DNA of 59,703 nucleotides, filler included. It is 7 parts of 7 records of this genome, joined end to end, with 100 filler letters (N's around TTAATTAATTAA, not from the genome) between each part and the next. Parts side by side here need not be neighbours in the genome. Positions count along the whole stretch, not along the records: positions 10,304 to 26,391 come from SRR2962707_4663; 6 more parts are not named here. One strand, given 5' to 3'. The position numbers and the translations under genes are program-made. The notes under the pieces were generated by a model. It saw only the letters and a program-made list of their open reading frames with translations. It ran no database searches and was not told the origin of the DNA. Below, piece after piece: positions 4,089 to 19,450 of this stretch. Positions within the stretch are counted from its first letter, which is position 1. Each line of letters starts with the position of its first letter.

Positions 4089-4092
4089 TGTC

Positions 4093-4941
4093 ATGATCCG
4101 TTCTGTACCTCGGTCCCGGTTGTTTGATGCCCTTTACCTGAGCTATCTGTTGGCCTTTTTCCTGTATCTTGCGTTGCCTTTGCTGGTGACGGCCGTGTTC
4201 GCATTCAACGACTCTCCGTTCCCGTCATTACCCTGGCAGGGCTTTACCCTGGACTGGTATCTGGCCGACGGCACCGACGGGCGTACCGGGCTTTTTCATG
4301 ACGACGGCTTGCTCAGTGCGCTCTGGGTCAGTACCAAAATCGCGTTCTGGGTGACGTTGGTCAGTGTGGGGCTTGGCTGCGTGAATGCGGTATTGTTCGA
4401 GCGGGTGGAGTTTCGCGGCAAGGAGCTGCTGTATCTGTTGATGCTGCTGCCGCTGGTGATTCCGGGCGTGATTCTCGGGGTATCCATTCTGGTGTTCTAC
4501 AGTGGCATGGCCAACGATGTCTCCCGCTTGTGGGGTATCGAGCTGGACTTGTTCCGGCCGGGGCTGACATTGGTGGTGATGGGGCAGGTCACCTTCATTG
4601 CCACCCTGGCTACTCTGGTGATTGCGGCCAGGCTGCGCAAATTCGACCGACAGCTGGAAGAGGCTGCCCTCAATCTGGGTGCCACGCCGGTTGTGGCGTG
4701 GTTCACGGTTACCCTGCCGTGGCTGCTTCCCTCCATCCTCGGGGCCGCGGCAATGGCGTTTTTGATGTCCTTCGAAAACTTCAATACCACGGTCATGCTC
4801 ACCGGTAGTGATACCCCGCTCACCGTGGCCCTGTTCAATCGTCTGCGGGAAGGCTCAACGCCGGTGTTGAACGCGGTGGCGCTGTTTCTGATGCTGGTGT
4901 CTGCGTTGCTTGCGCTGTTTACCCTCCGACAAAAAAGTTGA
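4093..4941 (+). CDS. Polyamine ABC permease (PotC-like)
   Basis: Multi-TM; GFTLDWY, LEEAALNLGA EAA loop, P.LNAVA. Confidence 0.85.
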   Translation: MIRSVPRSRLFDALYLSYLLAFFLYLALPLLVTAVFAFNDSPFPSLPWQGFTLDWYLADGTDGRTGLFHDDGLLSALWVSTKIAFWVTLVSVGLGCVNAVLFERVEFRGKELLYLLMLLPLVIPGVILGVSILVFYSGMANDVSRLWGIELDLFRPGLTLVVMGQVTFIATLATLVIAARLRKFDRQLEEAALNLGATPVVAWFTVTLPWLLPSILGAAAMAFLMSFENFNTTVMLTGSDTPLTVALFNRLREGSTPVLNAVALFLMLVSALLALFTLRQKS

Positions 4942-7244
4942 GAAAGTTCTGTATCTGGCGTTTACGGTTTATACTGGAACGATCACTCCTGAAAGCGGGT
5001 TCTGCTTTGCACGCGTCCACTTGTCGCATCAGATTTCTGCTGGTGATCATCGCCCTCGGGGTCTGTCTGTCCCAGCCTGGATTTGCCGCTATCCAGCCGG
5101 TGGATGAGGGATGGCAGTATCGCTGGGGTGATTCCCCGTTTTTGCCTGATGGCACGCCATTGTGGATCCTTGAAGACTCTCCACAACACTGGCACGACAT
5201 TGGTTTTCCATCGAACCCTCCTGGCCGCGATGGTCGTGAGCATGCCTGGTTCAGGGTGCAATTGCCGGAAGGTAGCTGGTACCAGCCTGTCCTTTATGTT
5301 TATAGCGTCGACATCATTGTGCAGGCCTGGTTTCGGGGTGAATTGCTCTATCAATATGGCACCTTTGACCAAGAGGGAAGGGGCCGTTTTGAGGGATGGC
5401 CCTGGCATGAAATACGGCTACCCGAGGATTATCAGGGAGAGACGCTCTATTTCCGGATATTCTCGAATTACACCGACATAGGGTTATGGGGGGAGGTCGG
5501 GATTACCGATCATGCCGATCTGACGGTATACCTCCTCGGGGGATCTGCTGAGGAACTGGTAGTCTCGGCATTGTCGGCTCTGATAGCTTTTCTGGCTCTG
5601 GTGTTCGCCGTAATCCAAAGGGGCCAGCGCAGTTTCGCCAGCATTGCTCTGTTTTCATTCCTGACCTCGGTGATGCTGTTGGCTGAGAGCCAGGCGAGCT
5701 TGTTGATTGCTTACAAACCTTTGTTGTGGGACTACCTCGCGGCCGGCTCTTACTACCTGATTCCTATGGCGTTGGCCTTGTTGTTGCGGCAATGGCTAGG
5801 CGCTGCACGTCCGGTGCTGATCAGTTGGCTGGTGTGGATTCATCTTGGATTGGCGGTGAGCGCCCTGGCCCTGGCGTTGGTCGGCGCGGTCGACCTTTCT
5901 TCGACCTTCCCGGTGTTTGATGTGTTGCTTCTGGTCTCGCTGGTGGTGATGGCTGGCGCTGTGTTGCCGCGCTTTCGTGTGCTGTTCGGGGAGCAGCAGG
6001 TGCTGGTGGTGGCTTGTGGTGGGCTGGCGGTGCTGCTGATTGTTGATATGGCCGTTGCTCACGGGTTCTTGCCCTGGGGCCGGGTGCCGGTGAGCTGGGG
6101 AGCGCTGGGTTTCTCGCTGGCGGTGGTCAGTATTTCGGTCTGGCACTACGGCAAGACCCAGAAAGAGCTCCAGCAACTGAACGTCCGGCTGGAACAGAAG
6201 GTTCGGGAGCGCACCGCCCGTGCTGAGTCGCTGGCAGAAAGAGAAGTCGCCAGGGCCCGCTTGTTGGCACTGGAAAGCAAGAAAAGCCAGAAACTGGCGG
6301 ATGTGATTGCGGCTCTGCAGGATTGCGCCGGCATTGAGGAAGCGTTCGAGCCCCTGGTAAGAGCCATGCCGGAGCTCTACCTGCCCATGACCGGTTGTTT
6401 CTATCGAAGAGGCATCGATGGGCAGTACGACCGAGTGGTTCACTGGGGCGGTACCCCGGAGGATGTGTTCCCGGCGTCACTGGGGGCGAACCTGTCCGTC
6501 CTGACCGAAACCGTACTCCCGGTACGCAGTTACTATTTACCGGCTCAGATGTGCTTTTTCCTGCGGATAGAGTCTGCCCGCTCCGGCAATCGGCCTGAAG
6601 GGGTGTTGATGCTGGAGCGCCCGGACCTGCCGCCAGTGGTGAAAGACTATGGCATCGCAAGGGTGATTTCCTGGGTATACCAGTCGGTTGAGAAAATTGG
6701 CATTACCCTGTCTGGGCTGGCCTTGAGGGCTGAATTGCAACGATTCTCCTATGAGGATAGCCTGACCGGACTGAAAAATCGTCGCTACTTTGATGAACTC
6801 TTTCGCCATGAGCGGGAAGTCTCGGCTCGTTCTGATCGGCCGCTATGCCTGCTGATTTTCGATATTGATCACTTCAAACTTTTCAACGACTGTCATGGCC
6901 ACGAGGCCGGTGATCAGGCGCTGAGAATGGTCGGTGACGTGCTCGCTACCTGTTTTCGCGGCAGTGATACCGTTTGCCGTTATGGTGGTGAGGAGTTTTC
7001 GGTGCTGATGCCCGGGGCGTCCCTTGATGAGGCCCGGCAAAGGGCCGAGCAACTGCGGGCGGCCATCTCAGCCGAGCCAGTGGAACATCGGGGTGAAAAC
7101 CTGGGGAGCCTGACCATTTCAGCAGGCATTGCTTGCTGGCGGGAGAATTGTCCGGAGTTCGACGAGCTGTTCCGGGCCGCCGACCAGGCTCTGTACCAGG
7201 CCAAGGAAACGGGCCGCAACCGAGTAGTTGCGGCCACGCTCTGA
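4938..7244 (+). CDS. Membrane-bound diguanylate cyclase (periplasmic beta domain, about 7 TM, coiled coil, GAF-like, GGDEF); start uncertain
   Basis: C-terminal DSLTGLKNRR, DIDHFK.FND.HGH..GD, RYGGEEF, ADQALYQAK..GRNRV; hydrophobic helices in the middle. Confidence 0.85.
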   Translation: MRKFCIWRLRFILERSLLKAGSALHASTCRIRFLLVIIALGVCLSQPGFAAIQPVDEGWQYRWGDSPFLPDGTPLWILEDSPQHWHDIGFPSNPPGRDGREHAWFRVQLPEGSWYQPVLYVYSVDIIVQAWFRGELLYQYGTFDQEGRGRFEGWPWHEIRLPEDYQGETLYFRIFSNYTDIGLWGEVGITDHADLTVYLLGGSAEELVVSALSALIAFLALVFAVIQRGQRSFASIALFSFLTSVMLLAESQASLLIAYKPLLWDYLAAGSYYLIPMALALLLRQWLGAARPVLISWLVWIHLGLAVSALALALVGAVDLSSTFPVFDVLLLVSLVVMAGAVLPRFRVLFGEQQVLVVACGGLAVLLIVDMAVAHGFLPWGRVPVSWGALGFSLAVVSISVWHYGKTQKELQQLNVRLEQKVRERTARAESLAEREVARARLLALESKKSQKLADVIAALQDCAGIEEAFEPLVRAMPELYLPMTGCFYRRGIDGQYDRVVHWGGTPEDVFPASLGANLSVLTETVLPVRSYYLPAQMCFFLRIESARSGNRPEGVLMLERPDLPPVVKDYGIARVISWVYQSVEKIGITLSGLALRAELQRFSYEDSLTGLKNRRYFDELFRHEREVSARSDRPLCLLIFDIDHFKLFNDCHGHEAGDQALRMVGDVLATCFRGSDTVCRYGGEEFSVLMPGASLDEARQRAEQLRAAISAEPVEHRGENLGSLTISAGIACWRENCPEFDELFRAADQALYQAKETGRNRVVAATL

Positions 7245-7246
7245 CA

Positions 7247-8659
7247 TCAATGCCAGATATTGCTGTCGATCTTTTCGTGCAGCTCAGGATAGTCCTTGGA
7301 CTTGAAGTGCGGCACCAGGCCTTCTTTGCGCTGAGCCAGGTAATCTTTGGTCAGCTTCACAACCGTGCCGGACAACAGAACGATAGCAATCAGGTTGATG
7401 GTGGCCATCAGCCCCATGGATGCGTCCGCCGCATTGAATACCGTGACCACCGCTTCGTAGCCACCCCAGATCACCATGCCCAGCGCAGCGAGCCGCAACA
7501 GGGTCAAGCCCAGAGTGTTGCCGCCGCGCAGGTAGATCAAAGCGTTCTCGGCGTAGGTGTAATTGGCGACAATGGAGGTGAAGGCGAAGAACAGAATCGC
7601 GATGGCGATAAAGTAGCCCCCGAACTCACCCAGGTGTACTTCCATGGCCTGTTGGGTCAACTGGGTGCCGGTGACGCCGGAACCCGGCTCCAGAACGCCA
7701 GCCAACAGGATCATCACGGCCGTCGCCGTACAGACAATGATGGTATCGATGAACACACCGAATGCCTGAACCAGACCCTGTGAAGAGGGATGGTGCGGAG
7801 CCGGGGTTGCGGTCGCGGCAATGTTGGGTGCCGAGCCCATACCGGCTTCGTTGGAGAACAGGCCGCGTTTGATACCATTCAGCATGGCAGCAGTAATGGA
7901 GCCTGCCGCGCCGCCGGCGGCCTCTTCCAGGCCAAAGGCACTTTTTACGATCAGCGCCAGAATGCCCGGAACTTCGGTAATGTTCATGGCCATCACGCCC
8001 AGTGCCAGCAGTACGTAGGCGCCGGCCATGAACGGCACGACAAACTCAGCGAAGCGAACGATCTTGCGCAGACCGCCAAAGATGACAATGCCGGCAAGAG
8101 CCGCGATGACGACGCCGACACCGAGCTTGGGCACACCAAAGGCGCCCTGCATGGCATCGGCAATGGAGTTGGCCTGTACGGCGTTGAAAACCAGGCCGAA
8201 GGAGATAATCAGGCAGACCGCGAAAATGGCCGCAGCCCAGGGCGCTTTCAGGCCTTTGGCAATGTACACCGCCGGGCCTCCCCGATACTGGCCCTTGCCG
8301 TCGCGAACCTTGTACAGCTGGGCCAGAGTGCTTTCCGCATAACCGGTGGCCATACCGACAAGGGCTACCATCCACATCCAGAAAATGGCACCGGCACCGC
8401 CCAGGTACAGGGCAACCGCAACCCCGGCAAGGTTACCGGTACCCACCCGGGAGGCCAGGCTGGTGCACAGGGCCTGGAACGGAGAAATCCCGTGTACATC
8501 GCTTTCCCGGGAGCCACGGATGGCGCGGACCATTTCGCCGAAATTGACGAACTGAAGGAAGCCCAGACGGATGGTAAAGAAGACACCTACGGCAAGCAGG
8601 CCATAGACGAGGACATAGCCCCAGAGGATCGAGTTGAGAAAATCAACAATTGCAGTCAT
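7247..8659 (-). CDS. Alanine/glycine:cation symporter (AGCS family)
   Basis: ISPFQAL, RVGTGNLAGVA, GAIFWMW, GGPA.YI, KRGLFSNEAGMGSAP, FIDTIIVCTAT. Confidence 0.9.
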   Translation of the reverse strand: MTAIVDFLNSILWGYVLVYGLLAVGVFFTIRLGFLQFVNFGEMVRAIRGSRESDVHGISPFQALCTSLASRVGTGNLAGVAVALYLGGAGAIFWMWMVALVGMATGYAESTLAQLYKVRDGKGQYRGGPAVYIAKGLKAPWAAAIFAVCLIISFGLVFNAVQANSIADAMQGAFGVPKLGVGVVIAALAGIVIFGGLRKIVRFAEFVVPFMAGAYVLLALGVMAMNITEVPGILALIVKSAFGLEEAAGGAAGSITAAMLNGIKRGLFSNEAGMGSAPNIAATATPAPHHPSSQGLVQAFGVFIDTIIVCTATAVMILLAGVLEPGSGVTGTQLTQQAMEVHLGEFGGYFIAIAILFFAFTSIVANYTYAENALIYLRGGNTLGLTLLRLAALGMVIWGGYEAVVTVFNAADASMGLMATINLIAIVLLSGTVVKLTKDYLAQRKEGLVPHFKSKDYPELHEKIDSNIWH

Positions 8660-8808
8660 GGCTAGACGCCTTGTGATTTGTGAATGAGAAGTAATCCGAG
8701 GCGAGGCAGTCTAGCACGGTGAAAAATCAAGCAGACTGCGGAAATCCGTGATTGCCGGACAGCAAGGAATATGCTGTCCGGCGGTACTGCGGGGAGGGTT
8801 TCGCCGGT

Positions 8809-9252
8809 TCAGACCACCAGCACCGGGCACTTGGCCTGGGAGGCAACCCGGTGCGAGACGCTGCCCAGAAAGGTGCCGTCCTTGTCGCTGTTGGTGCCCT
8901 TGGTGCCCACTACAATCAGGTCGGCCTCCTTGTCCTGGGCAAATTTCACAATCACCTTCGAGGGCCGGCCGGCTTTGACGAAACCGCGTACCTTGGTGGC
9001 GCCATGCTCTTTGGCCAGCTCCTTGGCGTGGTTCACTACGCCTTTGGCATACTCAGACAGCACCTTGTCCGGAATGTCCATGTCGTCGGGCCTTCCGATA
9101 GACAACGACGCCTCAAACAGGCTGTGATGCTTGTACACACAGAGGATGTAGATCTCGGCGTCCGGGATCAGTTTCTGCAGTTCAATGGCTTTATCCAGTG
9201 CCTTGAGTGAGGTTTTGGAACCATCCACAGCGGCCAGAATCCGTTTAAACAT
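8809..9252 (-). CDS. teaD: Universal stress protein, TeaD-like regulator of the ectoine TRAP transporter
   Basis: 147 aa USP (RILAAVDGS...LGSVSHRV....CPVLVV) with the TeaD-like segment KHHSLFEASLS; directly downstream of a TRAP large permease. Confidence 0.8.
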   Translation of the reverse strand: MFKRILAAVDGSKTSLKALDKAIELQKLIPDAEIYILCVYKHHSLFEASLSIGRPDDMDIPDKVLSEYAKGVVNHAKELAKEHGATKVRGFVKAGRPSKVIVKFAQDKEADLIVVGTKGTNSDKDGTFLGSVSHRVASQAKCPVLVV

Positions 9253-9282
9253 GTTGTTCTCCTTTGATCAGTGGCTGTGGAT

Positions 9283-10203
9283 CTAGTCCCTGAACGCGAT
9301 GTCACGCAGGAACAGGGCAATATCCGGGAAGGCGATGATCAGGCCGGCAGCCGCCACCAGCATGAATATGAACGGAGGCGTACCCCGGATAACTTCCATG
9401 TAGGGCCGTTTGAAGATGGCAATGGCGGTGAAAATGTCGCAGCCAAAGGGTGGCGTGGCAGAACCGATGGCCACCTGCAGGGTAATCAGCACACCGACAA
9501 GCACCGGATCCAGCCCGGTGGCCTGAATGGCGGGCGCAAAGATCGGTGTCAGCACCAGGATAACCACGATGGGATCGACGAACATACAGGCGACGAAGAA
9601 GGCCACACAGATGGCAATCAGCACGCCCACAGGCCCGGCCTCGTTGACGCCCACCGCTTCCAGGATGGCCTGGGGAATCTGGGCAAAGGAAATGATCCAG
9701 GAGAAACCATTACCCACGGCCACCAGAATGAACACCACAGCCGTGATCAGCCCGGTGGATTTGGCAATCTTGTAAATGTCGTTCAGTTTCAGCGACCGGA
9801 AGACCACAAATTCCAGCAAGAAGGCGTAGAGCACGCAGACTGCAGCTGCCTCGGTGGGACTGAAAATACCACCGTAGATACCACCGACAATGATCACCGG
9901 GAACATCAGGGGCCAGGAGGCATCCCTGACTGACATCGCCCGTTCTTTCCAGCTGGCCTTGGCTTCAGTTGGAACATCGTTCTTGTAGGCGTAGATCAGG
10001 CAGTAGATCGAGAACATGAACAAAATCAGGAAGCCCGGGCCGATGCCCGCAATGAACAGTTCGGCAATGGAGGTTTCCGAGATGACCCCGTAGATGATCA
10101 TGCCGATGCTGGGAGGGATCAGGAAGGCGATATCACTGGCGTTGATAATCAGAGCCAACGTGAAGGGATCGGAGTAGCCAGCCTTGAGCATTTTCGGGCG
10201 CAG
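9283..10203 (-). CDS. teaC: TRAP transporter large permease (DctM/TeaC-like), 5'-truncated by contig end
   Basis: LIPPSIGMIIYG, GIFSPTEAA, TPPFGCDIF; synteny with teaD. Confidence 0.75.
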   Translation of the reverse strand: MRPKMLKAGYSDPFTLALIINASDIAFLIPPSIGMIIYGVISETSIAELFIAGIGPGFLILFMFSIYCLIYAYKNDVPTEAKASWKERAMSVRDASWPLMFPVIIVGGIYGGIFSPTEAAAVCVLYAFLLEFVVFRSLKLNDIYKIAKSTGLITAVVFILVAVGNGFSWIISFAQIPQAILEAVGVNEAGPVGVLIAICVAFFVACMFVDPIVVILVLTPIFAPAIQATGLDPVLVGVLITLQVAIGSATPPFGCDIFTAIAIFKRPYMEVIRGTPPFIFMLVAAAGLIIAFPDIALFLRDIAFRD

Positions 10204-10303
10204 NNNNNNNNNNNNNNNNNNNNNNNNNNNNNNNNNNNNNNNNNNNNTTAATTAATTAANNNNNNNNNNNNNNNNNNNNNNNNNNNNNNNNNNNNNNNNN
10301 NNN
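10204..10303. other. Artificial contig-joining spacer
   Basis: N44-TTAATTAATTAA-N44; stop codons in all six frames. Confidence 0.98.
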
Positions 10304-10304
10304 G

Positions 10305-10721
10305 GAACACTTCCAGTGGGTTATCGCCCTCACCCGCGTTGTCTCCGCCGTGTTCCGCAAAGGCGGCGACGTAACCTTCCTGGTGGAAGAACTGCGCAGC
10401 GTGTACGACCCCAACGGCGGCTACTTCAAGAAAGGCGGCGTATTCATGCCCTCACTTGTCGCCGAAATCGGCGCCGTGATCGAGAAGCACCTCAAGGCCA
10501 TCGGCCTGATTGAAAGCGAGGAAATGAGCGAAGTCACCAAACGCATCCTCGCCGAAAAACGCGCCGAATTCGAAGCCAGCCACACCACGGCCACGAACGA
10601 CGACAAAGCCGGCGACTACCCACCCAACGCCACCATGTGCGGCAAGTGCAGCACCAAGGCGGTGATTGTGATGGATGGGTGCGCGACTTGCCTGTCTTGT
10701 GGCGATAGTAAGTGCGGTTGA
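10305..10721 (+). CDS. nrdJb: Class II (B12-dependent) ribonucleotide reductase C-terminal part (NrdJb-like), 5'-truncated
   Basis: EHFQWVIALTRVVSAVFRKGGDVTFLVEELRSVYDP.GGYFK and C-terminal C..C...MDGC.TC..CG.SKCG. Confidence 0.8.
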   Translation, partial: EHFQWVIALTRVVSAVFRKGGDVTFLVEELRSVYDPNGGYFKKGGVFMPSLVAEIGAVIEKHLKAIGLIESEEMSEVTKRILAEKRAEFEASHTTATNDDKAGDYPPNATMCGKCSTKAVIVMDGCATCLSCGDSKCG

Positions 10722-10747
10722 GGTGATTGACTGCGATGTGTGATGAG

Positions 10748-10781
10748 AAGGCCTGGAGTGTGAAAGCTTCGGGCCTTTTTT
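10748..10781 (+). terminator. Rho-independent terminator after nrdJb
   Basis: AAGGCCTGGAG-loop-CTTCGGGCCTT followed by TTTT. Confidence 0.7.
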
Positions 10782-10889
10782 GTTTTCGCTCGGATGTAAT
10801 CGCCTGACCGCTTCGTTATTACGTGGCGATATTACGACAGAGCTAGGCATCCGACTCGCAACATCTTGAAATATTGGCGGCTTTTAGGC

Positions 10890-10984
10890 GTGCGTTCTAT
10901 ATTTTTGCGGAATAACGACGCGCAGTAATGCCGAAGTCACGTTTTGGAATATTGAAGCGTTCTATCAAGTACGCAGTTAGGTAT
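10890..10984 (+). other. Putative integron attI site (crossover G/TT at 10976/10977)
   Basis: GTTAGGTAT (10976-10984) is the exact reverse complement of ATACCTAAC (12379-12387) ending the first cassette; no attC hairpin upstream; direct repeat GCGTTCTAT at 10892 and 10957. Confidence 0.65.
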
Positions 10985-11033
10985 AGGCGCTGATCGAAAA
11001 ATATCTTTATTTTTCAATAACAAGGAGAACGAA

Positions 11034-11975
11034 ATGCCAAATGTTGTAAGTATGATTAATTGGAAGGGTGGCGTGGGGAAAACATCACTTACGCTACATC
11101 TCGCGTCAGGTTTAGCTACACGGCATAGTAAGCGCGTTCTCCTGATTGACCTGGATGCTCAGTGCAACCTATCTTTTTTAGCTGTCGGCCTCTCTCCTTA
11201 TGTTGACCACACCTATAAGCGTAACGGGCCAACATTGAAAACGATTTTTGATGCATACTTTGATCGTAGTTCTCTGAATCCAAAAGATGTGATCTTGGAG
11301 AAGCAGGTTCGTGCGCGTGCCGGAAAGATATACACCCAAGTCGGTATCATCTTGTCTCACCAAGAACTCACCTTGCTAGATATGAAGCTTGCTCGTGAAA
11401 AGAGGTCGGGGAAGGACCATAGAGAGGAAACCCGATTTGAGATAGAAAAGCTTTCTGTAATTAAAAATATAATAGACTCAGTTTCGGATGAATACGATTA
11501 TGTACTTCTAGATTGCCCACCAAACGTCAATCTGGTTACCCAAAATGCTTTTTTTGCAAGCGACTACTATGTTGTTCCGGCGATTCCAGATTTTTTATCA
11601 ACCGTTGGTATCTCTTTGATTACAAAATACATGGATCAGTTCAATAAAGATTATAGTTCGATGTGGAGTTATGCAGGGCTTCCTGGAAGTTACAACGATA
11701 CAAAGTTTGGTGGAATTATTTTCAACATGGTTGACGAGTACGGTGGTGGTCCTAAGGACGGTCATCAGCAAATCATTAACTCCACTGCGTCGCAACTTGG
11801 CAAAGGAGCAGTTTTTGATAAATATGTTACGGATGGTGATGGCATGTCAGCGGCAGCACAAGTAAATCTTCCTGTATTTGCTTTTGCTGACCTACCACGA
11901 TCCCAGCAAAACGCCCAAAAGCAAGCTACGTATCTTGAGGGCGTGGTCGATGAGTTTATCACGCGAATTATATAA
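11034..11975 (+). CDS. ParA/Soj-family ATPase (cassette 1, gene A)
   Basis: Deviant Walker A KGGVGKT, LLIDLDAQCNLS, DYVLLDCPPN; RBS AAGGAG upstream. Confidence 0.85.
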   Translation: MPNVVSMINWKGGVGKTSLTLHLASGLATRHSKRVLLIDLDAQCNLSFLAVGLSPYVDHTYKRNGPTLKTIFDAYFDRSSLNPKDVILEKQVRARAGKIYTQVGIILSHQELTLLDMKLAREKRSGKDHREETRFEIEKLSVIKNIIDSVSDEYDYVLLDCPPNVNLVTQNAFFASDYYVVPAIPDFLSTVGISLITKYMDQFNKDYSSMWSYAGLPGSYNDTKFGGIIFNMVDEYGGGPKDGHQQIINSTASQLGKGAVFDKYVTDGDGMSAAAQVNLPVFAFADLPRSQQNAQKQATYLEGVVDEFITRII

Positions 11976-11987
11976 GGTGGCTAATCT

Positions 11988-12386
11988 ATGAAGACACATG
12001 AGCTAGCCAACCAACTTGAATTGTTGGCAAAATTACTCAGAAGTATGCCAGACACTGAGTTTAGTGAAGCAAGTGGAGAGCAAGTGCAGCACTCTCTACA
12101 ACTATTTGAGAGCAAAACTACTAAGCCTTCTTCTCGTGCCAACAAATCATTGCCAAAAGGAATAGAAGAAAGCCTCTCAGGGAAATCTCCGGCTGAAATT
12201 GAAAAATTCCTTAGTTCCGAGGATGAGAACTTTTCCCTTAATAATCTCTTAGAGTTTGCGGAGCGTTTAGGTATTTCTACTTCAAAGCGGCAAAGCAAAA
12301 GTGCAGTAATAAACCTCATTACTAGGCATTTTGAGGCAAAGCAAATGCATTCGATAATTCGCAACACTAAGCCCGATGATACCTAA
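11988..12386 (+). CDS. Hypothetical 132-aa protein (cassette 1, gene B)
   Basis: Starts 12 nt after the parA stop with AAGGTGG RBS; its TAA stop lies in the attC R'' core ACCTAAC. Confidence 0.75.
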   Translation: MKTHELANQLELLAKLLRSMPDTEFSEASGEQVQHSLQLFESKTTKPSSRANKSLPKGIEESLSGKSPAEIEKFLSSEDENFSLNNLLEFAERLGISTSKRQSKSAVINLITRHFEAKQMHSIIRNTKPDDT

Positions 12387-12464
12387 CCAAAACAGGCACG
12401 GCGACGGCTACTCCACTGCGGCTGCGCCTCCATTCCGTAGCCGCGCGTGCTGTTGGCGTTAACG
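12381..12464 (+). repeat. attC site 1 (84 nt)
   Basis: R'' ACCTAAC, L'' CAGGCAC, central arms GCGACGGCTAC/GTAGCCGCGC, L' GTGCTG, R' GTTAACG. Confidence 0.9.
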
Positions 12465-12486
12465 TTTTATCTATCAGAAGGAGTTC

Positions 12487-13134
12487 GTGTTGTCTCTGAA
12501 AGGTTTGATTGAAGAAGGTGCTGTAGCGAAACGTCTACTGAAGCCCGTTTTTTCGTGGGGTAGAGGCTCCTGGTTCAAAAGGCTTTTGGTTTTAAGTCTG
12601 TTTGGTCTGATTTTTATCACTGGTTACTACCTATTACTTCAGTCACTGCTTTCAGAGGTCAGAAAGCATGATGATCAGGTGTCAAAAGAAAGGAATCGGA
12701 TTGTAGACGCAAGTCTCTACCAAGCAACGATTGGTTTTGCGGAGCTGTGTCTTAAACCGGCAACGATAGATAAAGAGAACGCCTCTTGGTATTGCGAAAA
12801 GGCTTTGCAGTTGTATAAGAACAACAACAAAGGAACGCCACCTGAATTAAGGAATGAGATTGTCGAACGTAAGGCGTACGGGGCTATGGTTGCCGACATG
12901 GAATCTCAACTTAGAGGTATCAAGCTAGATCGACTTGATCAGACGTCCCCTGCTCTTGATTGGCTTGATCAGATATTGAGCAAAACTGGTATGTTTTTAA
13001 CATTGTCCTTGGCTCTCTTCGGTATTTTGGCTTTGGTGTACGGCCTATATTTACACCGTGACAATTCGGAATCTGATGAGCCAGAAGGGGGTTCCAGTAA
13101 TTCTCAAAACACGTTAACAAGTGGGTCAAGCTGA
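12487..13134 (+). CDS. Hypothetical 2-TM membrane protein (cassette 2)
   Basis: GGAG RBS, GTG start; two hydrophobic helices (LLVLSLFGLIFITGYYLLL; MFLTLSLALFGILALVYGLYL) flank a soluble domain; ORF reads into attC2. Confidence 0.7.
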   Translation: MLSLKGLIEEGAVAKRLLKPVFSWGRGSWFKRLLVLSLFGLIFITGYYLLLQSLLSEVRKHDDQVSKERNRIVDASLYQATIGFAELCLKPATIDKENASWYCEKALQLYKNNNKGTPPELRNEIVERKAYGAMVADMESQLRGIKLDRLDQTSPALDWLDQILSKTGMFLTLSLALFGILALVYGLYLHRDNSESDEPEGGSSNSQNTLTSGSS

Positions 13135-13189
13135 CCGGGGTAAGTCCAACAATGTGCTTCGCACGTTGCCCCTTCGCAAAGCGTTAGGC
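13112..13189 (+). repeat. attC site 2, hybrid/degenerate
   Basis: R'' ACGTTAAC complements GTTAACGT at 12458; R' GTTAGGC; the left arm (GGGTCAAG) and right arm (CCCCTTCGCA) do not pair. Confidence 0.7.
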
Positions 13190-13200
13190 ATGAGGGAGTT

Positions 13201-13692
13201 ATGGATAATTCTGACTACATAGCACTTGGATCGGCTGTAATTGCTTTGGCGGCTTTTGGAGTCGCCATATGGCAGGGACATATAAGCCGACGGCACAATA
13301 TTTTGTCAGTTAAGCCACGCTTTCATATTGATAAGAGCTATATCGAAGGCCTTCACTATCGGCTGGAGAGTCAGGGGCTAGGTCCTGGAGTAGTGAGAGA
13401 ATTTTCCATTCTTGTGAATGAGCAAGAAATTACCGACCCTACAGAAGATCCATGGCCCGACATATTCAAAGCTCTAGGGGTAACCGGGATCAATTATGAT
13501 TTTCACATCCCGGCGGTTGGATCAACCCACGCACCCAACACCTCAAGGCAGCTGCTAAGCGTTACCTTTGCCAATATTTCAACTGACCCCAAAGTGATTG
13601 AGACGATTGATCAAGCAATAAACTTTAGGATTAAATTCAAATCACTGTATGAGAATGAGATGTTCTCTTACAAAGGGGGGGAGGATGCCTAA
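13201..13692 (+). CDS. Hypothetical protein with N-terminal TM helix (cassette 3)
   Basis: GAGGGAG RBS; IALGSAVIALAAFGVAIW helix; stop lies within R'' GCCTAAC. Confidence 0.75.
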   Translation: MDNSDYIALGSAVIALAAFGVAIWQGHISRRHNILSVKPRFHIDKSYIEGLHYRLESQGLGPGVVREFSILVNEQEITDPTEDPWPDIFKALGVTGINYDFHIPAVGSTHAPNTSRQLLSVTFANISTDPKVIETIDQAINFRIKFKSLYENEMFSYKGGEDA

Positions 13693-13771
13693 CCATCGCA
13701 GGCACAGCGACGGCTTCTCCATTGCAGCTTCGCCTCCCCTCCATTCCAAAGCCGCGCATGCTGCAGGCGTT
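13687..13771 (+). repeat. attC site 3 (same family as attC1), interrupted at the R' GTT by a MITE; original R' resumes at 13940 (GTTAGGC)
   Basis: ATGCCTAAC complements GTTAGGCAT at 13183; CAGGCACAGCGACGGCT...AGCCGCGCATGCTG arms. Confidence 0.9.
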
Positions 13772-13939
13772 GAGGCTGTAGAAAATGTCCCGAGGTATTC
13801 TGGGGTGGCGCTCATACGTGAAATTTGAAGGATTTTTCGGAGCAAAATATGCCTCAGATTTTATGAAAAGGCGCTATTTTTAGTGCGAAATTTAAACAAC
13901 TCGAGGCTTCGAAATAACTCTGGGGTTTTCTACAGCCTC
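13772..13939. mobile_element. 168-bp non-autonomous inverted-repeat element (MITE), possibly IS1182/IS5-type ends
   Basis: Perfect 14-bp TIR GAGGCTGTAGAAAA / TTTTCTACAGCCTC, flanked by GTT direct repeats (13769-13771, 13940-13942); no transposase. Confidence 0.85.
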
Positions 13940-13955
13940 GTTAGGCGAGAATCGA

Positions 13956-14450
13956 ATGAGCATACTAGCCACACATGCACAGGATTTCCTGAATGCCTAC
14001 GAGATCTTAAGGGAGAGCAACGACTCGTTCGTTAAACAGAACATACCTGATGCAGATGAACGGTGTATCGGAAAAACTTTTGGTACTCGTCCTGCAATGG
14101 GTGTCGATATCGTTTGCTTGGCATTTTCGGTCGAATTGCATTTGAAGGAACTGCATCGGGTGTCTTATGGCAAGATCCCTCGAGGACACAAGATCATTGA
14201 GCTTTTCAAGGCTTTGTCGGGAGCAGAACAGGAAGGAGTCGTTTCTCACCATTCCATAGCACGATACGGTTGGGATTGCGCACAATTGAAATGTGAGCTA
14301 CTTGCCATCAGCGACAGTTTCGAAAAGTGGAGATACGCCTACGAGAGCACAGCCCTCCGGTACAACATTTATTTCGCGAAGGCTCTAATAGAGGCTCTGC
14401 AATTCGTAGCAGCAAGAAAAGGAGGCGTGCATGAGGCAAGGCGCACCTAG
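13956..14450 (+). CDS. HEPN-like domain protein (cassette 4)
   Basis: AFSVELHLKEL...PRGHKIIELF...FEKWRY matches the E..LK / H.l..L / RY pattern of helical HEPN domains. Confidence 0.6.
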   Translation: MSILATHAQDFLNAYEILRESNDSFVKQNIPDADERCIGKTFGTRPAMGVDIVCLAFSVELHLKELHRVSYGKIPRGHKIIELFKALSGAEQEGVVSHHSIARYGWDCAQLKCELLAISDSFEKWRYAYESTALRYNIYFAKALIEALQFVAARKGGVHEARRT

Positions 14451-14528
14451 CAAGCGCAGACATCGCGACGGCTTTTTCATTGCGGCTTCGCCTTCATTTC
14501 AAAGCCGCGCATGCTGCGGTCGTTATAT
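14445..14528 (+). repeat. attC site 4 (attC1 family) with mutated R'' core (ACCTAGC)
   Basis: CAGACATCGCGACGGCTTT...AAAGCCGCGCATGCTG arms; R' GTTATAT; AAC core changed to AGC. Confidence 0.85.
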
Positions 14529-14544
14529 TTTACAGGGAGGTTGA

Positions 14545-15105
14545 ATGGACACCCAGCAGTTACTTGAGGCTGCGCAGACAATCGACATTCTTCGATCAAT
14601 GTTCGCCGATGATAAAAACGAATGGTTGCCGGTCATTGCAGCAATTGGGGGTGCATTCGTAGGCGGTATCTCGACCTTCGTCCCTAGCTATCTTCTGGAA
14701 AAGAGGAAGTTAAAGCAGGAGGCGCGCTCCGTAGAAACCGCCCTTGTTTCCGAAGTATCAGCCTTGCTCGAGGTTATTGAGCATCGAAGGTACGTCTACG
14801 GATTGGAGGAGTCGGTTCACTATCTCAAGCAGAATCCTGGTAAGAAAAAGGTTTTTGCGACAAAAATACCTGAGCACTACTCACGTATTTATCAAGAGCA
14901 CATCTCCAAGATTGGTCTGCTTCACCCCGACCTGTCTGCAAAAATCATCCGGTTTCATCAACTGATAGATTCGGGAGTCCAAGACATCTCTACAGGAGGC
15001 TTTATCGCAGAAACTGGTGGTGGCATTGAAGCTTTCGAAGAGTTACTCGAAATATTCTATTCGGCAGTGAAGATCGGCCGAGAGATTGTCGGAACAGAAA
15101 TATAA
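14545..15105 (+). CDS. Hypothetical protein with one TM helix (cassette 5)
   Basis: GGGAGG RBS; WLPVIAAIGGAFVGGISTFVP helix; stop lies in R'' AAATATAAC, complementary to GTTATATTT at 14522. Confidence 0.75.
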   Translation: MDTQQLLEAAQTIDILRSMFADDKNEWLPVIAAIGGAFVGGISTFVPSYLLEKRKLKQEARSVETALVSEVSALLEVIEHRRYVYGLEESVHYLKQNPGKKKVFATKIPEHYSRIYQEHISKIGLLHPDLSAKIIRFHQLIDSGVQDISTGGFIAETGGGIEAFEELLEIFYSAVKIGREIVGTEI

Positions 15106-15140
15106 CCAGTCGCTGTAGTACGCGGTGCACTTACCCCAGT
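15098..15140 (+). repeat. Truncated attC site 5 (left arm only)
   Basis: ATATAACCAGTCGCTGTAG left arm, then GCACTTACCCCAGT; no matching L'/R'. Confidence 0.6.
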
Positions 15141-15157
15141 GAGAGAGGCTGCCGTTG

Positions 15158-15721
15158 ATGGACGAAGAGGAATCCCTAAACAGAGCAATTCACGAAGATG
15201 TGAAGCTCTACCAATACAACCCCAACTGGCCAGCAATGTTCCAGGATGAGCGGGACCGCCTCCTTCATTTGTTTCCGGGTGAGTTTCTGGCGATCGAACA
15301 TATCGGCAGCACCGCAGTACCCGGCCTATCGGCCAAGCCGATCATCGATATCCTGGCGGGGGTAGATTCGATGTCACGGGCCGATGAGTTAATGGAACCG
15401 TTGTGCCAGTCAAAATACGCTACCTCAATGGATTTCAATGCCTCGTTAGTGGATCGGCGTTGGCTTATGCGATGGGCCGAGGGGCGCAGGACACATCACC
15501 TGCATCTTATGGTGTTCGGTAGTCAGGAGTGGGATCGGCGCCTGGCCTTTCGGAACATACTTCGTGCCAATACGGAACTGGCACAACGGTATGAGCAAAA
15601 TAAGCGGATGTGGGTGGCGGAATTCCGTTCGGATAGAGAGGCCTATACTGCGGCTAAAGCAGATTTTATACGGGAGGCATTGAACCACTGCAACCCAGCT
15701 TCAGGACACAAGATCAGATGA
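15158..15721 (+). CDS. GrpB-family protein (nucleotidyltransferase-like fold)
   Basis: YNPNWP..F..E, IEHIGSTAVPGLSAKPIIDI, RTHHLH, LAFR..LR, Y...K, REAYTAAK..FI. Confidence 0.85.
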   Translation: MDEEESLNRAIHEDVKLYQYNPNWPAMFQDERDRLLHLFPGEFLAIEHIGSTAVPGLSAKPIIDILAGVDSMSRADELMEPLCQSKYATSMDFNASLVDRRWLMRWAEGRRTHHLHLMVFGSQEWDRRLAFRNILRANTELAQRYEQNKRMWVAEFRSDREAYTAAKADFIREALNHCNPASGHKIR

Positions 15722-16071
15722 GCGAATTCGTCGATAACCTCAATGATGTATTTTGCCAGTTCGGCCCGGTTTCCGTTCGGCGTATGTTCGGTGGCTATGG
15801 TGTGTACCACGATGGCGTGATGTTTGGCCTTGTTGCGGATGATGTTCTGTATCTGAAGGTCGATGGGGAATCGATGGGGCGGTTTACAGAGCTGGATTTG
15901 GAGCCGTTCGAATACGAGAAAAATGGCGCTAAGATTAAGATGTCTTACTACATGGCACCGGAGAGCATTTTCGAGGATTCTGAAGAGGCAAAAGAATGGG
16001 CAGAGCTGGCATTCAATGCGGCGCTCCGGGCCAGGAAACCAGCAGCAAGAACCAAGGCAAACAAGAAATGA
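15718..16071 (+). CDS. TfoX/Sxy N-terminal domain protein
   Basis: FGPVSVRRMFGGYGVY..GVMFGLVADDVLYLKVD...MSYY. Confidence 0.85.
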   Translation: MSEFVDNLNDVFCQFGPVSVRRMFGGYGVYHDGVMFGLVADDVLYLKVDGESMGRFTELDLEPFEYEKNGAKIKMSYYMAPESIFEDSEEAKEWAELAFNAALRARKPAARTKANKK

Positions 16072-16151
16072 CCGCCTACGTAATCGTCCATGGACTTACC
16101 CCGGTACAGTAGGCGCTCCTAGCCTTTGATCGGAGCATAAGAGGAATTTTC

Positions 16152-16892
16152 ATGAGAGTAGGCTTGCTGATCATCGTCGCATTCTGGTGCCTTCCAGTTT
16201 CTTCCCAAACGCTCGAAATTATGGGGTCGGACGAGGGTTTTCTGCCGTTTTATTACGGTGACAACCTTAACAAGGGCATTCTGGTTGAGGTGATCAATGA
16301 GTTCAGCCTGGAGGCCGGTATTACAGCCGGTTTTCGCCCGATGCCGCGCAAGCGCCAGGCCTGGGCCCTGGAAAAAGGACAAGCCAACGCGGTTTTTGCC
16401 AACCCGTTGTGGATGCCGCTACCAAGCCGGATGCACGCCGTCGGACCGGTGTTAACCTGGCGAGATCGTCTGTTCGCACAACCTGGCCGACAACCGGCCT
16501 CCTTCGATGATCTTGATGGCAGCATCTGTCTGCGAAAATGGTTTGTCTACAGTGATCAACTTGAGCGGCGGATTGGTACCAACCTGGCCCGCCATGACTC
16601 TTATAATGCCCAACAGATGCTGGGCATGTTTCTGAACAAACGCTGCGATTACGCCGTCATGAACGAAATGGAGTTCCGGTTTCTGGCAAAGTTGGTGGAA
16701 GTCGATCCGAATTTTTACAGCACGGAACTGATCGACGCCGAATGGCCGGTCTATCTTGGTATCCTCAAAACCGAGGCGGCTCTGATTGAAGCGGCGGAAG
16801 CTTTTTTCGCTACCCGCACGGTTGATGCGGAAGCCATGCTACCCAAACTGCCGCCGCCGGACCGGCACATCTCGATTCAGCCGGACAAGTAA
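16152..16892 (+). CDS. Periplasmic substrate-binding protein (family 3-like), orphan
   Basis: Signal peptide; PF....GILVEVI, PRKR....LE.G, MFL.KRCDY. Confidence 0.6.
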   Translation: MRVGLLIIVAFWCLPVSSQTLEIMGSDEGFLPFYYGDNLNKGILVEVINEFSLEAGITAGFRPMPRKRQAWALEKGQANAVFANPLWMPLPSRMHAVGPVLTWRDRLFAQPGRQPASFDDLDGSICLRKWFVYSDQLERRIGTNLARHDSYNAQQMLGMFLNKRCDYAVMNEMEFRFLAKLVEVDPNFYSTELIDAEWPVYLGILKTEAALIEAAEAFFATRTVDAEAMLPKLPPPDRHISIQPDK

Positions 16893-16906
16893 GGCAACTG
16901 ATTACT

Positions 16907-18010
16907 ATGACCGCTACCCTCACCATGGATCATTTGCGCCGCTACGCCATCTCGCGCAGTCTCTTCAAGCCGACCACTTTGGCACGTGCGATCAATAAAC
17001 TGGGTTTTGTCCAGCTCGACCCAATACGAGCGCCGGCACGGGCGCAGGATTTGACGCTCCGCCATCGTGTTATCGACTACCAGGCGGGTGACCTGGAGGC
17101 TCGCTACCCGCGCCTGGCGGTCGAGGAAGATTTCTTTATCAACTACGGGGTTCTGCCCCGCACCACGCAGCGCCTTATGCACCCGCGCACGGCGCGCACC
17201 GAGTGGCCACGCTCACGCTGGGAACAGGCGCAGGCGGTGCAGGAATTTGTGCAAAGCCGTGGTGTCGTTCACCCGCGCGAGGTGGACTCAGCCTTCGAGC
17301 ATGGCACCACCAAGAATTGGTTCGGCGGTAATAGCCGTGCCAGTACGCAGCTCCTGGACGGCATGCATTATCGTGGGCTGCTGCGTGTGGCGAAGCGCGA
17401 AGGCGGGGTACGCCTGTATGCGCCGCCGCTCGCTGATGAGCTCGACGCGGTGAACCCGGATACCACTCTGGACGCATTGGTCGACGTCGCAGTCGCAAAG
17501 TATGCCCCGCTGCCTGCGGCTACGCTCAGCCGCCTGGTAACGAGCGTGAGTTCTTCAGCGGTCCCGCAGTGGCGCGAGCGTCGTCGTGAAGCACTCGCGC
17601 GTGCAAAGGCTCGCCTGCCCCAGGCGACAGTTGATGGCTGTCGCTGGTTTTGGCCCATCGGCGAGAATCCTGGCAGTCGCCGCTTTGCGAGTGACAATGT
17701 GCTGGATGACCGCCTGCGCCTACTGGCGCCCTTCGATCCTTTAGTTTGGGACCGCGATCGCTTTGAGCGTTTCTGGGGCTGGGCCTACCGTTTTGAGGCC
17801 TACACTCCGGCACCAAAGCGGGTGCGTGGTTACTATGCACTACCTATGCTGTGGCGCGGTCATGTCATAGGCTGGGCTAATGCCGCCGTACGTAATGGGC
17901 AACTGGAGCTAGAGCCAGGGTACGTGCGCGGACATGCCCCAGACGACACCGCGTTCAAGCCAGCGTTGCAGGACGAGCGGGTACGCCTCGAGCGCTTTCT
18001 TTCGCTGTGA
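16907..18010 (+). CDS. YcaQ/AlkZ-family (HTH_42) DNA crosslink-repair glycosylase
   Basis: LGFVQLDPI (QxD), LLAPFDPLVWDR.R...WG..YRFEAYTP..KR..GYYALP. Confidence 0.85.
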   Translation: MTATLTMDHLRRYAISRSLFKPTTLARAINKLGFVQLDPIRAPARAQDLTLRHRVIDYQAGDLEARYPRLAVEEDFFINYGVLPRTTQRLMHPRTARTEWPRSRWEQAQAVQEFVQSRGVVHPREVDSAFEHGTTKNWFGGNSRASTQLLDGMHYRGLLRVAKREGGVRLYAPPLADELDAVNPDTTLDALVDVAVAKYAPLPAATLSRLVTSVSSSAVPQWRERRREALARAKARLPQATVDGCRWFWPIGENPGSRRFASDNVLDDRLRLLAPFDPLVWDRDRFERFWGWAYRFEAYTPAPKRVRGYYALPMLWRGHVIGWANAAVRNGQLELEPGYVRGHAPDDTAFKPALQDERVRLERFLSL

Positions 18011-18080
18011 GGCTCGGTGTGCGTGCGTAAAATGAGAGCAGTGTACTTGAAGTGACACCCTCCACCAGGGAGAAGCCCGG

Positions 18081-18623
18081 ATGGGTCTGAAAGAACATTT
18101 CCAATTATTGGCCGCTTACAATCAGTGGATGAACGCAAAGGTCTACGAAGCGGCCGGTCGCCTCTCCGCCTCGGAGTTAGCCAAGGACCGTGGGGCCTTC
18201 TTCGGCTCCATTCTGGGAACGCTCAATCACATCGTTGTGGCGGACACCGTGTGGCTCAAACGGTTTGTGACCCATCCATCCTGCGTGGACACGTTTCAGA
18301 CGGTCGCTGAGCTCGACAATCCTGCCAGCCTGGATCAGATCCTCTTTGACGATCTCGGGCGTTTAAAAGAACACCGGATCTGGCTGGATCGCCAGATTAT
18401 CGACTGGATATCCCATCCCTCCGAAGGCGACCTGGATGTTGTTCTCAGTTATCACAACATGAAAGGTGTTTCCGCCAACAAGCGGTATTCGAGCCTGGTT
18501 CTCCATTTCTTTAACCATCAAACCCACCACCGCGGGCAAGTTTCAACGTTGCTGTCGCAGGCAGGCGTGGATGTTGGCGTTACCGACCTGTTGGAACGGA
18601 TTCCGGATGAAACGCAGGTATAA
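18081..18623 (+). CDS. DinB-family protein
   Basis: YNQWMN, GAFFGSILGTLNHI..AD..WL, HFFNHQTHHRGQ..LLSQAG...G.TDL. Confidence 0.9.
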   Translation: MGLKEHFQLLAAYNQWMNAKVYEAAGRLSASELAKDRGAFFGSILGTLNHIVVADTVWLKRFVTHPSCVDTFQTVAELDNPASLDQILFDDLGRLKEHRIWLDRQIIDWISHPSEGDLDVVLSYHNMKGVSANKRYSSLVLHFFNHQTHHRGQVSTLLSQAGVDVGVTDLLERIPDETQV

Positions 18624-18701
18624 CACGACAAACAACCTCATCCGGTCCTTTTTACCTACGGGTTGGGAGGTAACGATGAACTCTGGTAGCAGGTCTTTTG
18701 A

Positions 18702-19154: not shown

Positions 19155-19447
19155 AGTGCATTTTCACCATACTTTTGGTCATAGGCCTTATTGGTTGTGC
19201 TTCGCAGCAATCAGCCGTCGACCTGAAGAACTCGGATTCTGCCATCATTGGTGAAAAGCCTGAAGGTTATCCAAAAACCTTTATCAAGCGCCTGCCTGAT
19301 TTGCCCGGCTTTTGTATTGAAGTGACAGAAGACTGGAGAAAACATCCGTATCAGGGTGAGACGATCTGGCTGAAGGAAAAGACGATAAAGAGCCTGAACT
19401 GCCCTGGGGAACCCTTGCCGGGCTCTACCAATGTATTGAAGAGATAA
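19151..19447 (+). CDS. Putative lipoprotein
   Basis: Lipobox LIGC after a hydrophobic N-terminus; ATGA overlap with the GNAT stop. Confidence 0.6.
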   Translation: MKCIFTILLVIGLIGCASQQSAVDLKNSDSAIIGEKPEGYPKTFIKRLPDLPGFCIEVTEDWRKHPYQGETIWLKEKTIKSLNCPGEPLPGSTNVLKR

Positions 19448-19450
19448 AGA

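Follow-up and report, generated by a model that had tools for sequence, protein, structure and literature searches.

A mobile two-gene integron cassette pairs a ParA-type ATPase with a small protein of a new family and may act in conflicts between mobile elements

Results

The A-B cassette and its ends

The stretch of DNA analyzed here (the window; 59,703 nt) carries, on one of its contigs (10304-26391), two adjacent genes: gene A, encoding a ParA-type ATPase, and gene B, encoding a small helical protein. Together they form the two-gene operon of a discrete, self-contained and promoter-poor integron cassette of 1482 bp at 10977-12458 (Table 1). The cassette leaves 57 nt upstream of A, and its attC starts at the stop codon of B; the 12-nt gap between the genes leaves no room for an attC between them. 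The bottom strand of the attC folds into a hairpin with bulged bases (-19 kcal/mol), and sister copies of this attC follow the next cassettes at ~13693-13770 and 14451-14525. The GC content is 42-49% from 10976 onward (42-44% in 11001-13000) versus 56-60% in 1-10000, and a series of + strand open reading frames (ORFs) with attC-like elements between them begins there.

A blastn search of 10304-14000 against the metagenome contig L020 gave a single match, 10976-12461, with 94.8% identity over 1486 nt and unrelated flanks. In L020, a 59-nt attC ending in GTTAGGT precedes the cassette, and an attC of the cassette's own type follows it. Contigs of the public run X7, which bears another organism label, match 10976-12458 at about 96% and differ from the window on both flanks; runs X1 and X2 show the arrangement found in the window itself. 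The A-B cassette has the same ends in three contexts, and since the homology to L020 and X7 stops at these ends, 10977-12458 is the true unit. Two features of an integron cassette were found: attC cores with a bulged hairpin, and movement as a unit bounded at the crossover points between G and TT.

An earlier reading of this DNA, made from the sequence alone (the sequence-only reading), had placed the ends of the cassette at 10977 and 12458, and the comparisons with L020 and X7 show these to be correct to the base. The same reading had described an AT-rich two-gene cassette, which agrees with the low-GC block, the two ORFs, the 12-nt gap and the lack of an intervening attC; it had also reported no rep gene, ParB domain or repeat array near the pair, and none was seen in the contig 10304-26391.

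In a marine metatranscriptome library (run X11), one contig of 267 nt matches 11846-12112 without a difference and crosses the A-B junction. It gives a weak hint that A and B are transcribed together, weak because DNA carry-over in the X11 library is possible. Other X11 contigs match the attC and the upstream ORF alone.

Table 1. Features of the A-B cassette and its surroundings (window coordinates; parts of protein B in residues)
Feature	Position	Strand	Remarks
Left recombination core GTTAGGT	10976-10982	+	Cassette start at 10977; read from sequence; homology to L020 and X7 begins at 10976
Ribosome-binding site AAGGAG of gene A	11022-11027	+	6 nt ahead of ATG; read from sequence
Gene A, 313 aa	11034-11975	+	ORF, motifs, Pfam, AlphaFold2 model, Foldseek
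Ribosome-binding site-like AAGGTGG of gene B	11974-11980	+	Overlaps the stop codon of A; read from sequence
Gene B, 132 aa	11988-12386	+	ORF; begins 12 nt past the stop codon of A
Cassette attC	12381-12464	+	R'' ACCTAAC at 12381-12387 overlaps the stop codon of B; R' GTTAACG at 12458-12464; cassette end at 12458
B, conserved N-terminal MKTHE helix	residues 2-19		
B, second helix	residues 27-42		
B, low-confidence linker	residues 43-58		
B, conserved C-terminal helical domain	residues 59-126		
5'-cut ORF	10350-10721		Upstream of the cassette; only the 3' end is present
Terminator-like hairpin	10745-10780		Upstream of the cassette
Artificial spacers N44-TTAATTAATTAA-N44	10204-10303, 26392-26491, 33278-33377, 41367-41466, 48131-48230, 53423-53522		

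Protein A, a ParA/Soj-fold ATPase

Protein A contains a deviant Walker A motif, NWKGGVGKT (residues 9-17), a Walker A' motif, IDLD (D39 and D41), and a Walker B motif, LLDCPP (D160); NWKGGVGKT, D39, D41 and D160 are invariant in 37 relatives. The KGGVGKT and LLDCPP motifs that the sequence-only reading had described as intact in a 313-aa ATPase were both found in ORF A. In Pfam, A matches AAA_31 (2.8e-35; 122 bits versus a cutoff of 27) and CbiA (3.7e-14; 53 bits versus 25.4), and in PHROGs it matches phrog_164, 'ParA-like partition protein' (9e-43). The NCBIfam partition, MinD and BcsQ models all scored far under their cutoffs. The AlphaFold2 (AF2) model of A has a predicted local distance difference test (pLDDT) score of 86.8 and a predicted template modelling score (pTM) of 0.89. 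In a Foldseek search, its best match was ParA-ATP (8ray; E 1e-15; target-normalized TM score, TMt, 0.86), followed by Soj (2bek), Helicobacter pylori Soj, ParA2 and McdA. By fold and motifs, A is a true member of the ParA/Soj ATPases, and its nucleotide-binding motifs are all intact.

Compared with these matched structures, A has about 60 additional residues, and the extra segment (about residues 48-149) lies between Walker A' and Walker B. In the alignment of 37 relatives the mean column identity is 74%, and the extra segment is equally conserved. The best 120 database clusters of A are all at least 60% identical to it and nearly all 311-313 aa long; the named sources among them are Pseudomonas, Burkholderia, Xanthomonas, Yersinia, Aeromonas, Azospirillum, Paenibacillus and Oscillibacter, with identities of 60-62% for the homologs from the last two genera. 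Within the close clade the mean identity of A is 79%. The synonymous-codon identity of A, in contrast, is 0.38 (20 genes), and it is flat along the gene, ranging from 0.29 to 0.48 per 15-codon window. Because the amino acids are conserved while the synonymous sites are saturated, the A genes are old and constrained rather than recently spread; they are under very strong purifying selection and not decaying.

Protein B, a candidate new family

The AF2 model of B is all helical (pLDDT 78.9), in keeping with the 'small helical-looking' partner of the sequence-only reading. Conservation is concentrated in the extreme N-terminus (M-K-T-H-E, then an amphipathic helix ending LLR-x-P) and in the C-terminal third, and the middle is variable. 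The B family comprises 64 clusters at 90% identity, almost all of 130-135 aa and named only 'hypothetical protein', and, at 50% identity, 41 representatives in a set of 1.84 billion proteins. No fused or longer forms of B were found, although this is weak evidence.

Searches of Pfam, NCBIfam, PADLOC and PHROGs gave no credible match for B. No ParB, ribbon-helix-helix (RHH) or helix-turn-helix (HTH) family was detected in Pfam (E<=0.01) or NCBIfam (E<=1), a profile search of the PDB gave nothing below E 0.2, and a Foldseek search of the PDB with the model gave nothing at E<=1e-3. The earlier statement that B is not a ParG/ParB-type binder is in line with every sequence and profile test run, none of which revealed such a signature. 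In a wide VIA fold search, B reached Z scores of 4-5.8 to the C-terminus of T4 endonuclease VII, the N-terminal domain of Rho, and SAP and LEM domains, and its nearest named Atlas cluster is Rho_N (0.80). These SAP/Rho_N/HeH-like resemblances are mutually consistent, but they lie in the noise range for helical proteins and serve as leads only; such match lists are also compatible with membership of B in a family that does not appear in them. Assignment of B as a HEPN_RiboL-PSP nuclease was rejected: the Pfam score is 19.1 bits versus a cutoff of 28.4, and a conserved Rx4-6H motif is lacking, R113 and H114 being adjacent and H121 being replaced by D in many relatives. As far as these comparisons reach, B appears to be a new protein family; it is the obligate, co-inherited partner of A (see below).

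Pairing and co-inheritance

Searches seeded with B yielded 9 genome loci and 18 metagenome loci, and searches seeded with A yielded 5 IMG/VR loci and 3 plasmid-collection records, 2 of which were fetched as loci (loci are numbered with the prefix L). In every one of the 33 testable loci (9 genome, 7 plasmid or IMG/VR, and 17 metagenome), A is the gene directly upstream of B. This count excludes L034, which starts inside B; L026 and L027 repeat L003 and L004; A is cut by the contig end in L001, L021, L028, L032 and L036; and L037 is a distant pair. The genes are separated by a gap of 6-15 nt or overlap by 1 nt. In an enterobacterial clade, A is 52% identical, and B is recognizable by profile alone (E 1e-15 to 4e-23) and keeps the MKTHELI start. 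No third gene is conserved among the loci. Pairwise identities of A and B are correlated, with a Spearman coefficient of 0.92 (253 pairs), or 0.81 when the close clade is taken alone; since the pairs are non-independent, these values describe co-inheritance and are not a test of it. The sequence-only reading had held that the two genes move as one unit and had asked whether homologous pairs co-occur; both points are borne out by the constant gene order in the 33 loci, and the first also by the correlated identities.

Three decayed copies were observed. In L009 (5042-5983), A has an in-frame stop at codon 291 and B is intact; in L002 (5040-5990), the 5' part of A is lost, frameshifts are present and B is intact; and in the Klebsiella P4-like element L011 (6001-7371), A is in three pieces and B has a stop and a frameshift. 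The idea that A breaks first as a sign of toxicity was rejected, as it fits two of the three decayed copies and is not significant.

Distribution and genomic neighborhoods

The pair is nearly absent from plasmid records and absent from phage records. B had no match in 72,556 plasmid records or 50,697 phage records, and in the same phage records neither the enterobacterial B nor A (at 1e-30) had a match. A (E<=1e-40) together with the enterobacterial B matched 3 of the 72,556 plasmid records: two equally long Pantoea plasmids and a 5.37-Mb Klebsiella entry that had been filed among the plasmids. The doubt of the sequence-only reading about a partitioning role for the pair is strengthened by these counts, with a single Pantoea megaplasmid type among the plasmid records. 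A was also absent from 400 other sampled genomes of the phylum at E<=1e-60, and the enterobacterial pair had no DNA match in 5,426 complete Escherichia coli genomes.

Contexts were classed by eye among 27 distinct close-clade loci. Six of them are clear cassettes (the window, L020, L023, L024, L025 and L034), with differing attC types, and four are probable cassettes (L003, which is the same as L026; L004, which is the same as L027; L021; and L029). The pair is also found as cargo of phage satellites and phages. Four P4-like satellites (L011, L017, L018 and L019) carry the arrangement int-A-B-(cargo)-psu, in which the pair starts inside the end of int. The record annotation of L011, from Klebsiella, lists int, ParA fragments, psu, ogr/delta and a sid-like gene; L017-L019, from IMG/VR, have in common int, psu, a psu/sid-like gene, alpA and a repressor gene. 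In L018, A and B are the only ORFs of at least 60 aa between int and psu, whereas the cargo comprises the pair and an AIPR/Abi-alpha gene in L017, and the pair, a RexA-like gene and a 150-aa ORF in L019. In L016, the pair adjoins two genes of a P2-like phage, those for the portal and the large terminase, on the portal side of the gpA-gpQ hotspot as described in the text of PMC9122126. According to the same text, the int-psu locus of P4-like satellites is a reservoir of antiviral systems (Rousset 2022, PMC9122126), and the text of a 2026 study reports phage protection by 6 of 8 unannotated P4 hotspot loci picked at random (PMC13586616).

Several neighbors of the pair are defense genes. In L020, a Lamassu pair (1762-4619; LmuA with DUF4297, 8e-139; LmuB, 1e-203) stands right after the near-identical A-B cassette and is probably a cassette of the same array. 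IetA and IetS are directly upstream of the pair in L029, the end of a PD-T4-6-like kinase gene lies 1.3 kb upstream of it in L025, and a DpdB-like gene is near it in L033. The sequence-only reading had raised the question whether homologs cluster in defense islands, and relatives do occupy recognized sites of defense cargo (int-psu and P2-like); defense genes (Lamassu, IetAS, AIPR and RexA-like) are neighbors in a minority of loci. No conjugation genes were found near the pair among 120 neighboring ORFs. We conclude that A-B is an accessory module that has spread horizontally, by way of integron cassettes, the cargo hotspots of P4-like satellites and a P2-like phage, and a few plasmid-like elements.

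Some loci have further features of their own. The 38-kb IMG/VR contig L015 encodes, within 3571-8104, a small 222-aa ParA and a 96-aa partner ORF, then Rep3, A-B and a resolvase, so that two ParA-type loci reside on one plasmid-like element. On the Pantoea plasmid L010 (3302-5590 and 8192-9339), a divergent gene annotated in the record as a 762-aa 'AAA family ATPase' flanks the pair, and genes annotated as an RNase A-like toxin and a contact-dependent inhibition (CDI) immunity protein lie downstream of it. In L007, a Gallionella metagenome-assembled genome, copies of a 23-nt element (4900-5000 and 6560-6600) stand on both sides of the pair; the element starts with GGGTTGAGG, ends with CCCAACG and may be a short attC or REP-like.

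Search for a centromere

No repeat families or arrays were found in the cassette or in the whole window, nor at 11 flanks of 6 related loci. A scan of 20 genes for a valley in synonymous-site variation revealed none; it was limited to A and is compatible with a site inside the variable B. On these comparisons, A contains no hidden nucleotide-level element, and no centromere-like DNA seems to travel with the pair.

Functional interpretation

A classical partition locus needs a centromere that moves with its genes and should abound on plasmids. Both expectations fail here, which leaves a ParA-type switch acting in trans: with no cis site travelling with the genes, the pair would act on other elements. 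Because of this trans action, the location of the genes at sites of anti-element genes and the precedent of ParI (see below), we rank first the reading in which A and B are a ParA switch and its activator that act in trans in mobile-element conflicts, in interference or anti-phage defense and not in partition of their own carrier; we give it a little less than an even chance.

Under this interference reading, A would be an ATP-driven dimerizing switch, probably bound to the nucleoid like ParA and Soj, and B would serve it as an adaptor that also activates it. Through its conserved MKTHE helix, B would touch the A dimer and set off ATP hydrolysis, a step proposed by analogy with the partner peptides of ParB, MinE, McdB and PomX, which trigger hydrolysis in their respective ATPases. 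Target binding, to nucleic acid or to a protein, would fall to the conserved C-terminal helical domain of B, and the pair would mis-position the DNA or proteins of the target element or block its replication or segregation, the targets being a phage, a helper phage or a plasmid. In its boldest form, which we regard as somewhat improbable, this would be the first anti-phage or anti-plasmid immunity built on a ParA/MinD-type ATPase: a centromere-less motor with an adaptor, spread by integrons and satellites, that mis-places or immobilizes invading DNA without cutting or killing.

A number of observations weigh against interference. (i) No phenotype is on record for any member of the family, and no nuclease, toxin, pore or other effector domain was detected in A or B with Pfam, PADLOC, NCBIfam or PHROGs. 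(ii) The sequence-only reading had pointed to PADLOC as a check on its defense proposal, and this check turned out negative: PADLOC 2.0.0 (2023) has no model for the system, A matching only PDC-M28B over residues 8-41 (a 34-residue P-loop segment; 2e-4) and B matching PDC-M64C at a non-credible E of 0.024. The ten ORFs downstream of the pair in the contig 10304-26391 are likewise without a PADLOC match. (iii) Defense-gene neighbors occur in a minority of loci; elsewhere the surroundings are heterogeneous, and most Pfam matches among the 120 neighboring ORFs are to housekeeping families. (iv) Contact between A and B is suggested by gene linkage alone; the predicted complex of an A dimer with ATP and B scored 0.00 and was used as evidence neither way. 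(v) Nucleic-acid binding by B is a hypothesis only, because the fold matches are within noise and B, with an isoelectric point of 6.4, is not basic. (vi) Two contexts are plasmid-like. In L015 the pair follows a Rep3 initiator gene by 130 nt and precedes a serine resolvase gene, and on the 204-kb Pantoea plasmid RepB and RepA genes lie upstream, with repA 3.6 kb from the pair. P4-like elements can also live as plasmids, and a maintenance role fits these Rep3 and repA contexts and possibly the P4 plasmid state.

Such a role is the strongest of the rival explanations, although we consider it unlikely. The pair would then be an atypical partition or maintenance system, with A as the motor and B as a new centromere-binding adaptor, that stabilizes episomal carriers (plasmids, P4-like elements in the plasmid state and P2-like prophages), and the integron copies would be passengers or incompatibility determinants. 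The ParA/Soj fold and motifs of A, the order of ATPase and then small partner as in type Ib loci, the rep neighbors in L015 and Pantoea, and the conserved N-terminus of B with its helical C-terminal domain and weak SAP/Rho_N-like matches all agree with partition, as does a presumed system for plasmid partitioning, which the text of PMC9122126 mentions in about a quarter of E. coli P2-like hotspots. The unit nevertheless lacks a centromere, having 57 nt upstream, nothing downstream, no repeat arrays and no conserved synonymous sites in A, and it occurs on one plasmid type among the plasmid records and in none of the phage records. L015 already has a conventional ParA of 222 aa with its 96-aa partner. 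Although cassettes have no replication of their own, at least 6 of the loci are clear cassettes, and selection on the genes is strong. The sequence-only reading had named a canonical centromere binder beside plasmid rep genes as the finding that would speak against its proposal; rep neighbors were indeed found in L015 and Pantoea, but B lacks a ParB/ParG signature, as well as any RHH or HTH signature.

The pair could instead position a protein cargo or regulate the carrier, with no role in conflict, in the manner of McdAB, ParC/ParP or PomXYZ, or it could, like Soj or MipZ, regulate host replication or division to the advantage of its carrier element. Many ParA/MinD ATPases pair with non-ParB partners on non-DNA cargo, according to the text of PMC9178275; McdA is among the close structural matches of A, and B is not basic. 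We nonetheless regard this explanation as distinctly unlikely: no conserved third gene or cargo operon is near the pair at any locus, the pair is mobile and patchily distributed, and its cargo would need to be universal from Pseudomonadota to Paenibacillus and Oscillibacter. An addiction pair of the toxin-antitoxin type, in which A or B inhibits growth, the other neutralizes it and the array or carrier is stabilized, appears very improbable. Two-gene cassettes of chromosomal integrons are often toxin-antitoxin pairs, as the sequence-only reading had noted, and in the decayed L009 and L002 copies A is damaged while B is intact. That idea nevertheless gained no specific support, since neither protein matches a toxin or antitoxin family; the gene sizes and the upstream, more conserved ATPase are unlike known type II pairs, both genes are broken in L011, and A, being 2.4 times longer than B, is expected by chance to be damaged first.

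Interference or anti-phage defense thus stays at the head of our ranking, and there is a substantial chance that the pair is a new kind of defense system. ParA-type ATPases are positioning motors that rely on a cargo-bound partner; A-B travels without a cargo site and is found where mobile elements keep their weapons. If the pair does block phages or plasmids, it would represent a new class of immunity, by spatial interference as opposed to degradation or suicide, and would supply a role for an integron cassette and P4-hotspot cargo that recurs yet escapes present defense finders. If partition is its role instead, B would be a new family of centromere binders, and selection of the pair in integrons would then need explaining. 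The module is small (1.4 kb) and directly testable.

Surroundings of the cassette in the window

Separate contigs make up the window, joined by the six artificial spacers listed in Table 1; gene order across the spacers is therefore meaningless. The contig that carries A-B is cut at 10304, and the first position in the array that the sequence-only reading gave to the cassette is a tentative one. DNA to the left of 10976 showed no attC-like fold in folding analysis, and no integrase was found among the scanned ORFs of the contig. Because no integrase was seen there, the array may be a cluster of attC sites without an integrase.

The array continues over 12459-16150 with ORFs of 215, 163, 164 and 186 aa, for which no Pfam or PADLOC family was found, followed by GrpB and TfoX_N genes. 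A short attC of a different type is present at ~13135-13190. The cassette at 13764-13945 apparently lacks an ORF and contains a perfect 14-nt inverted repeat with arms at 13772-13785 and 13926-13939; the repeat ends in TTTTCTACAGCCTC-GTTAGGC. This attC 3'-end motif also precedes the A-B pair in L003 and L023, which come from other organisms. Beyond the array, 16907-19154 holds ORFs for an AlkZ-like DNA glycosylase, a DinB-family protein and a GNAT acetyltransferase. Further along the same contig, the region 19691-25735 includes a gene for a DUF418/acyltransferase membrane protein on the - strand, a class A beta-lactamase-family ORF at 21060-22121 (PF13354, 1e-44) and a MacB/FtsX-type ABC permease gene at 22955-25735 on the - strand.

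Comparison with known systems

Type Ib partition loci, such as ParF-ParG of TP228, ParA-ParB of pB171 and delta-omega of pSM19035, resemble the A-B pair in that a small ParA-type ATPase, lacking an N-terminal HTH, precedes a small partner in one operon, and the model of A superposes on ParA, Soj and the delta protein. Unlike these loci, the A-B pair has no centromere repeats, B has no RHH or ParB signature, and A is longer by about 60 residues and shows much stronger conservation than the ParAs of plasmids. The pair is, moreover, nearly absent from plasmids and sits in integron cassettes and satellite hotspots.

ParA-like ATPases with small partners are also known outside partition. VirC1-VirC2 of Ti plasmids recruit the relaxosome and do not act in partition; the NCBIfam VirC1 match of A is, in contrast, at the level of the P-loop only (E 0.11), and conjugation genes are lacking near the pair. 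McdA-McdB, MinD-MinE, PomZ-PomXY and ParC-ParP share with A-B the combination of an ATPase switch and a small partner that evolves fast, keeps its N-terminal segment conserved and is not homologous to ParB. These pairs are vertically inherited and placed in operons with their cargo (carboxysome, division or chemotaxis), whereas A-B is a free-standing mobile cassette with no cargo gene.

A parallel in location is the cargo of the P4 int-psu and P2 gpA-gpQ hotspots, since A-B takes the same position in four P4-like satellites and one P2-like contig, and its small size suits hotspots that are limited in size. None of the named hotspot systems in the texts of PMC9122126 and PMC13586616 (PARIS, Crouga, Bandua, Aernus, Toga, Reve and Hailong) has a ParA-type ATPase, and the 'putative plasmid partitioning system' of E. 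coli P2-like elements is not described further in the text of PMC9122126. The main texts on integron cassettes, BRiC, Xanthomonas integrons and P4/P2 hotspots contain no mention of a ParA-type cassette, and no description of the A-B combination, its centromere-less mobile lifestyle or its hotspot location was found in the searchable literature texts, supplementary tables being outside this scope.

A precedent for the proposed action in trans is ParI, a ParA-family protein encoded on a genomic island of Pseudomonas putida KT2440, which destabilizes IncP-7 plasmids and needs its Walker A motif to do so, as reported (Miyakoshi 2012) in the texts of PMC9178275 and PMC8544851. By these descriptions, ParI is like A in being a ParA-family ATPase on a horizontally acquired element, in its case a chromosomal one, and it acts in trans against a foreign replicon, as A would; unlike A, it is an orphan without a dedicated partner, and its Walker A reads KGGVGKS in a table of PMC9178275. 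A is a member of a known superfamily and B a new family; in A-B, a ParA-type protein is joined to a new kind of partner, in a niche that is new as well.

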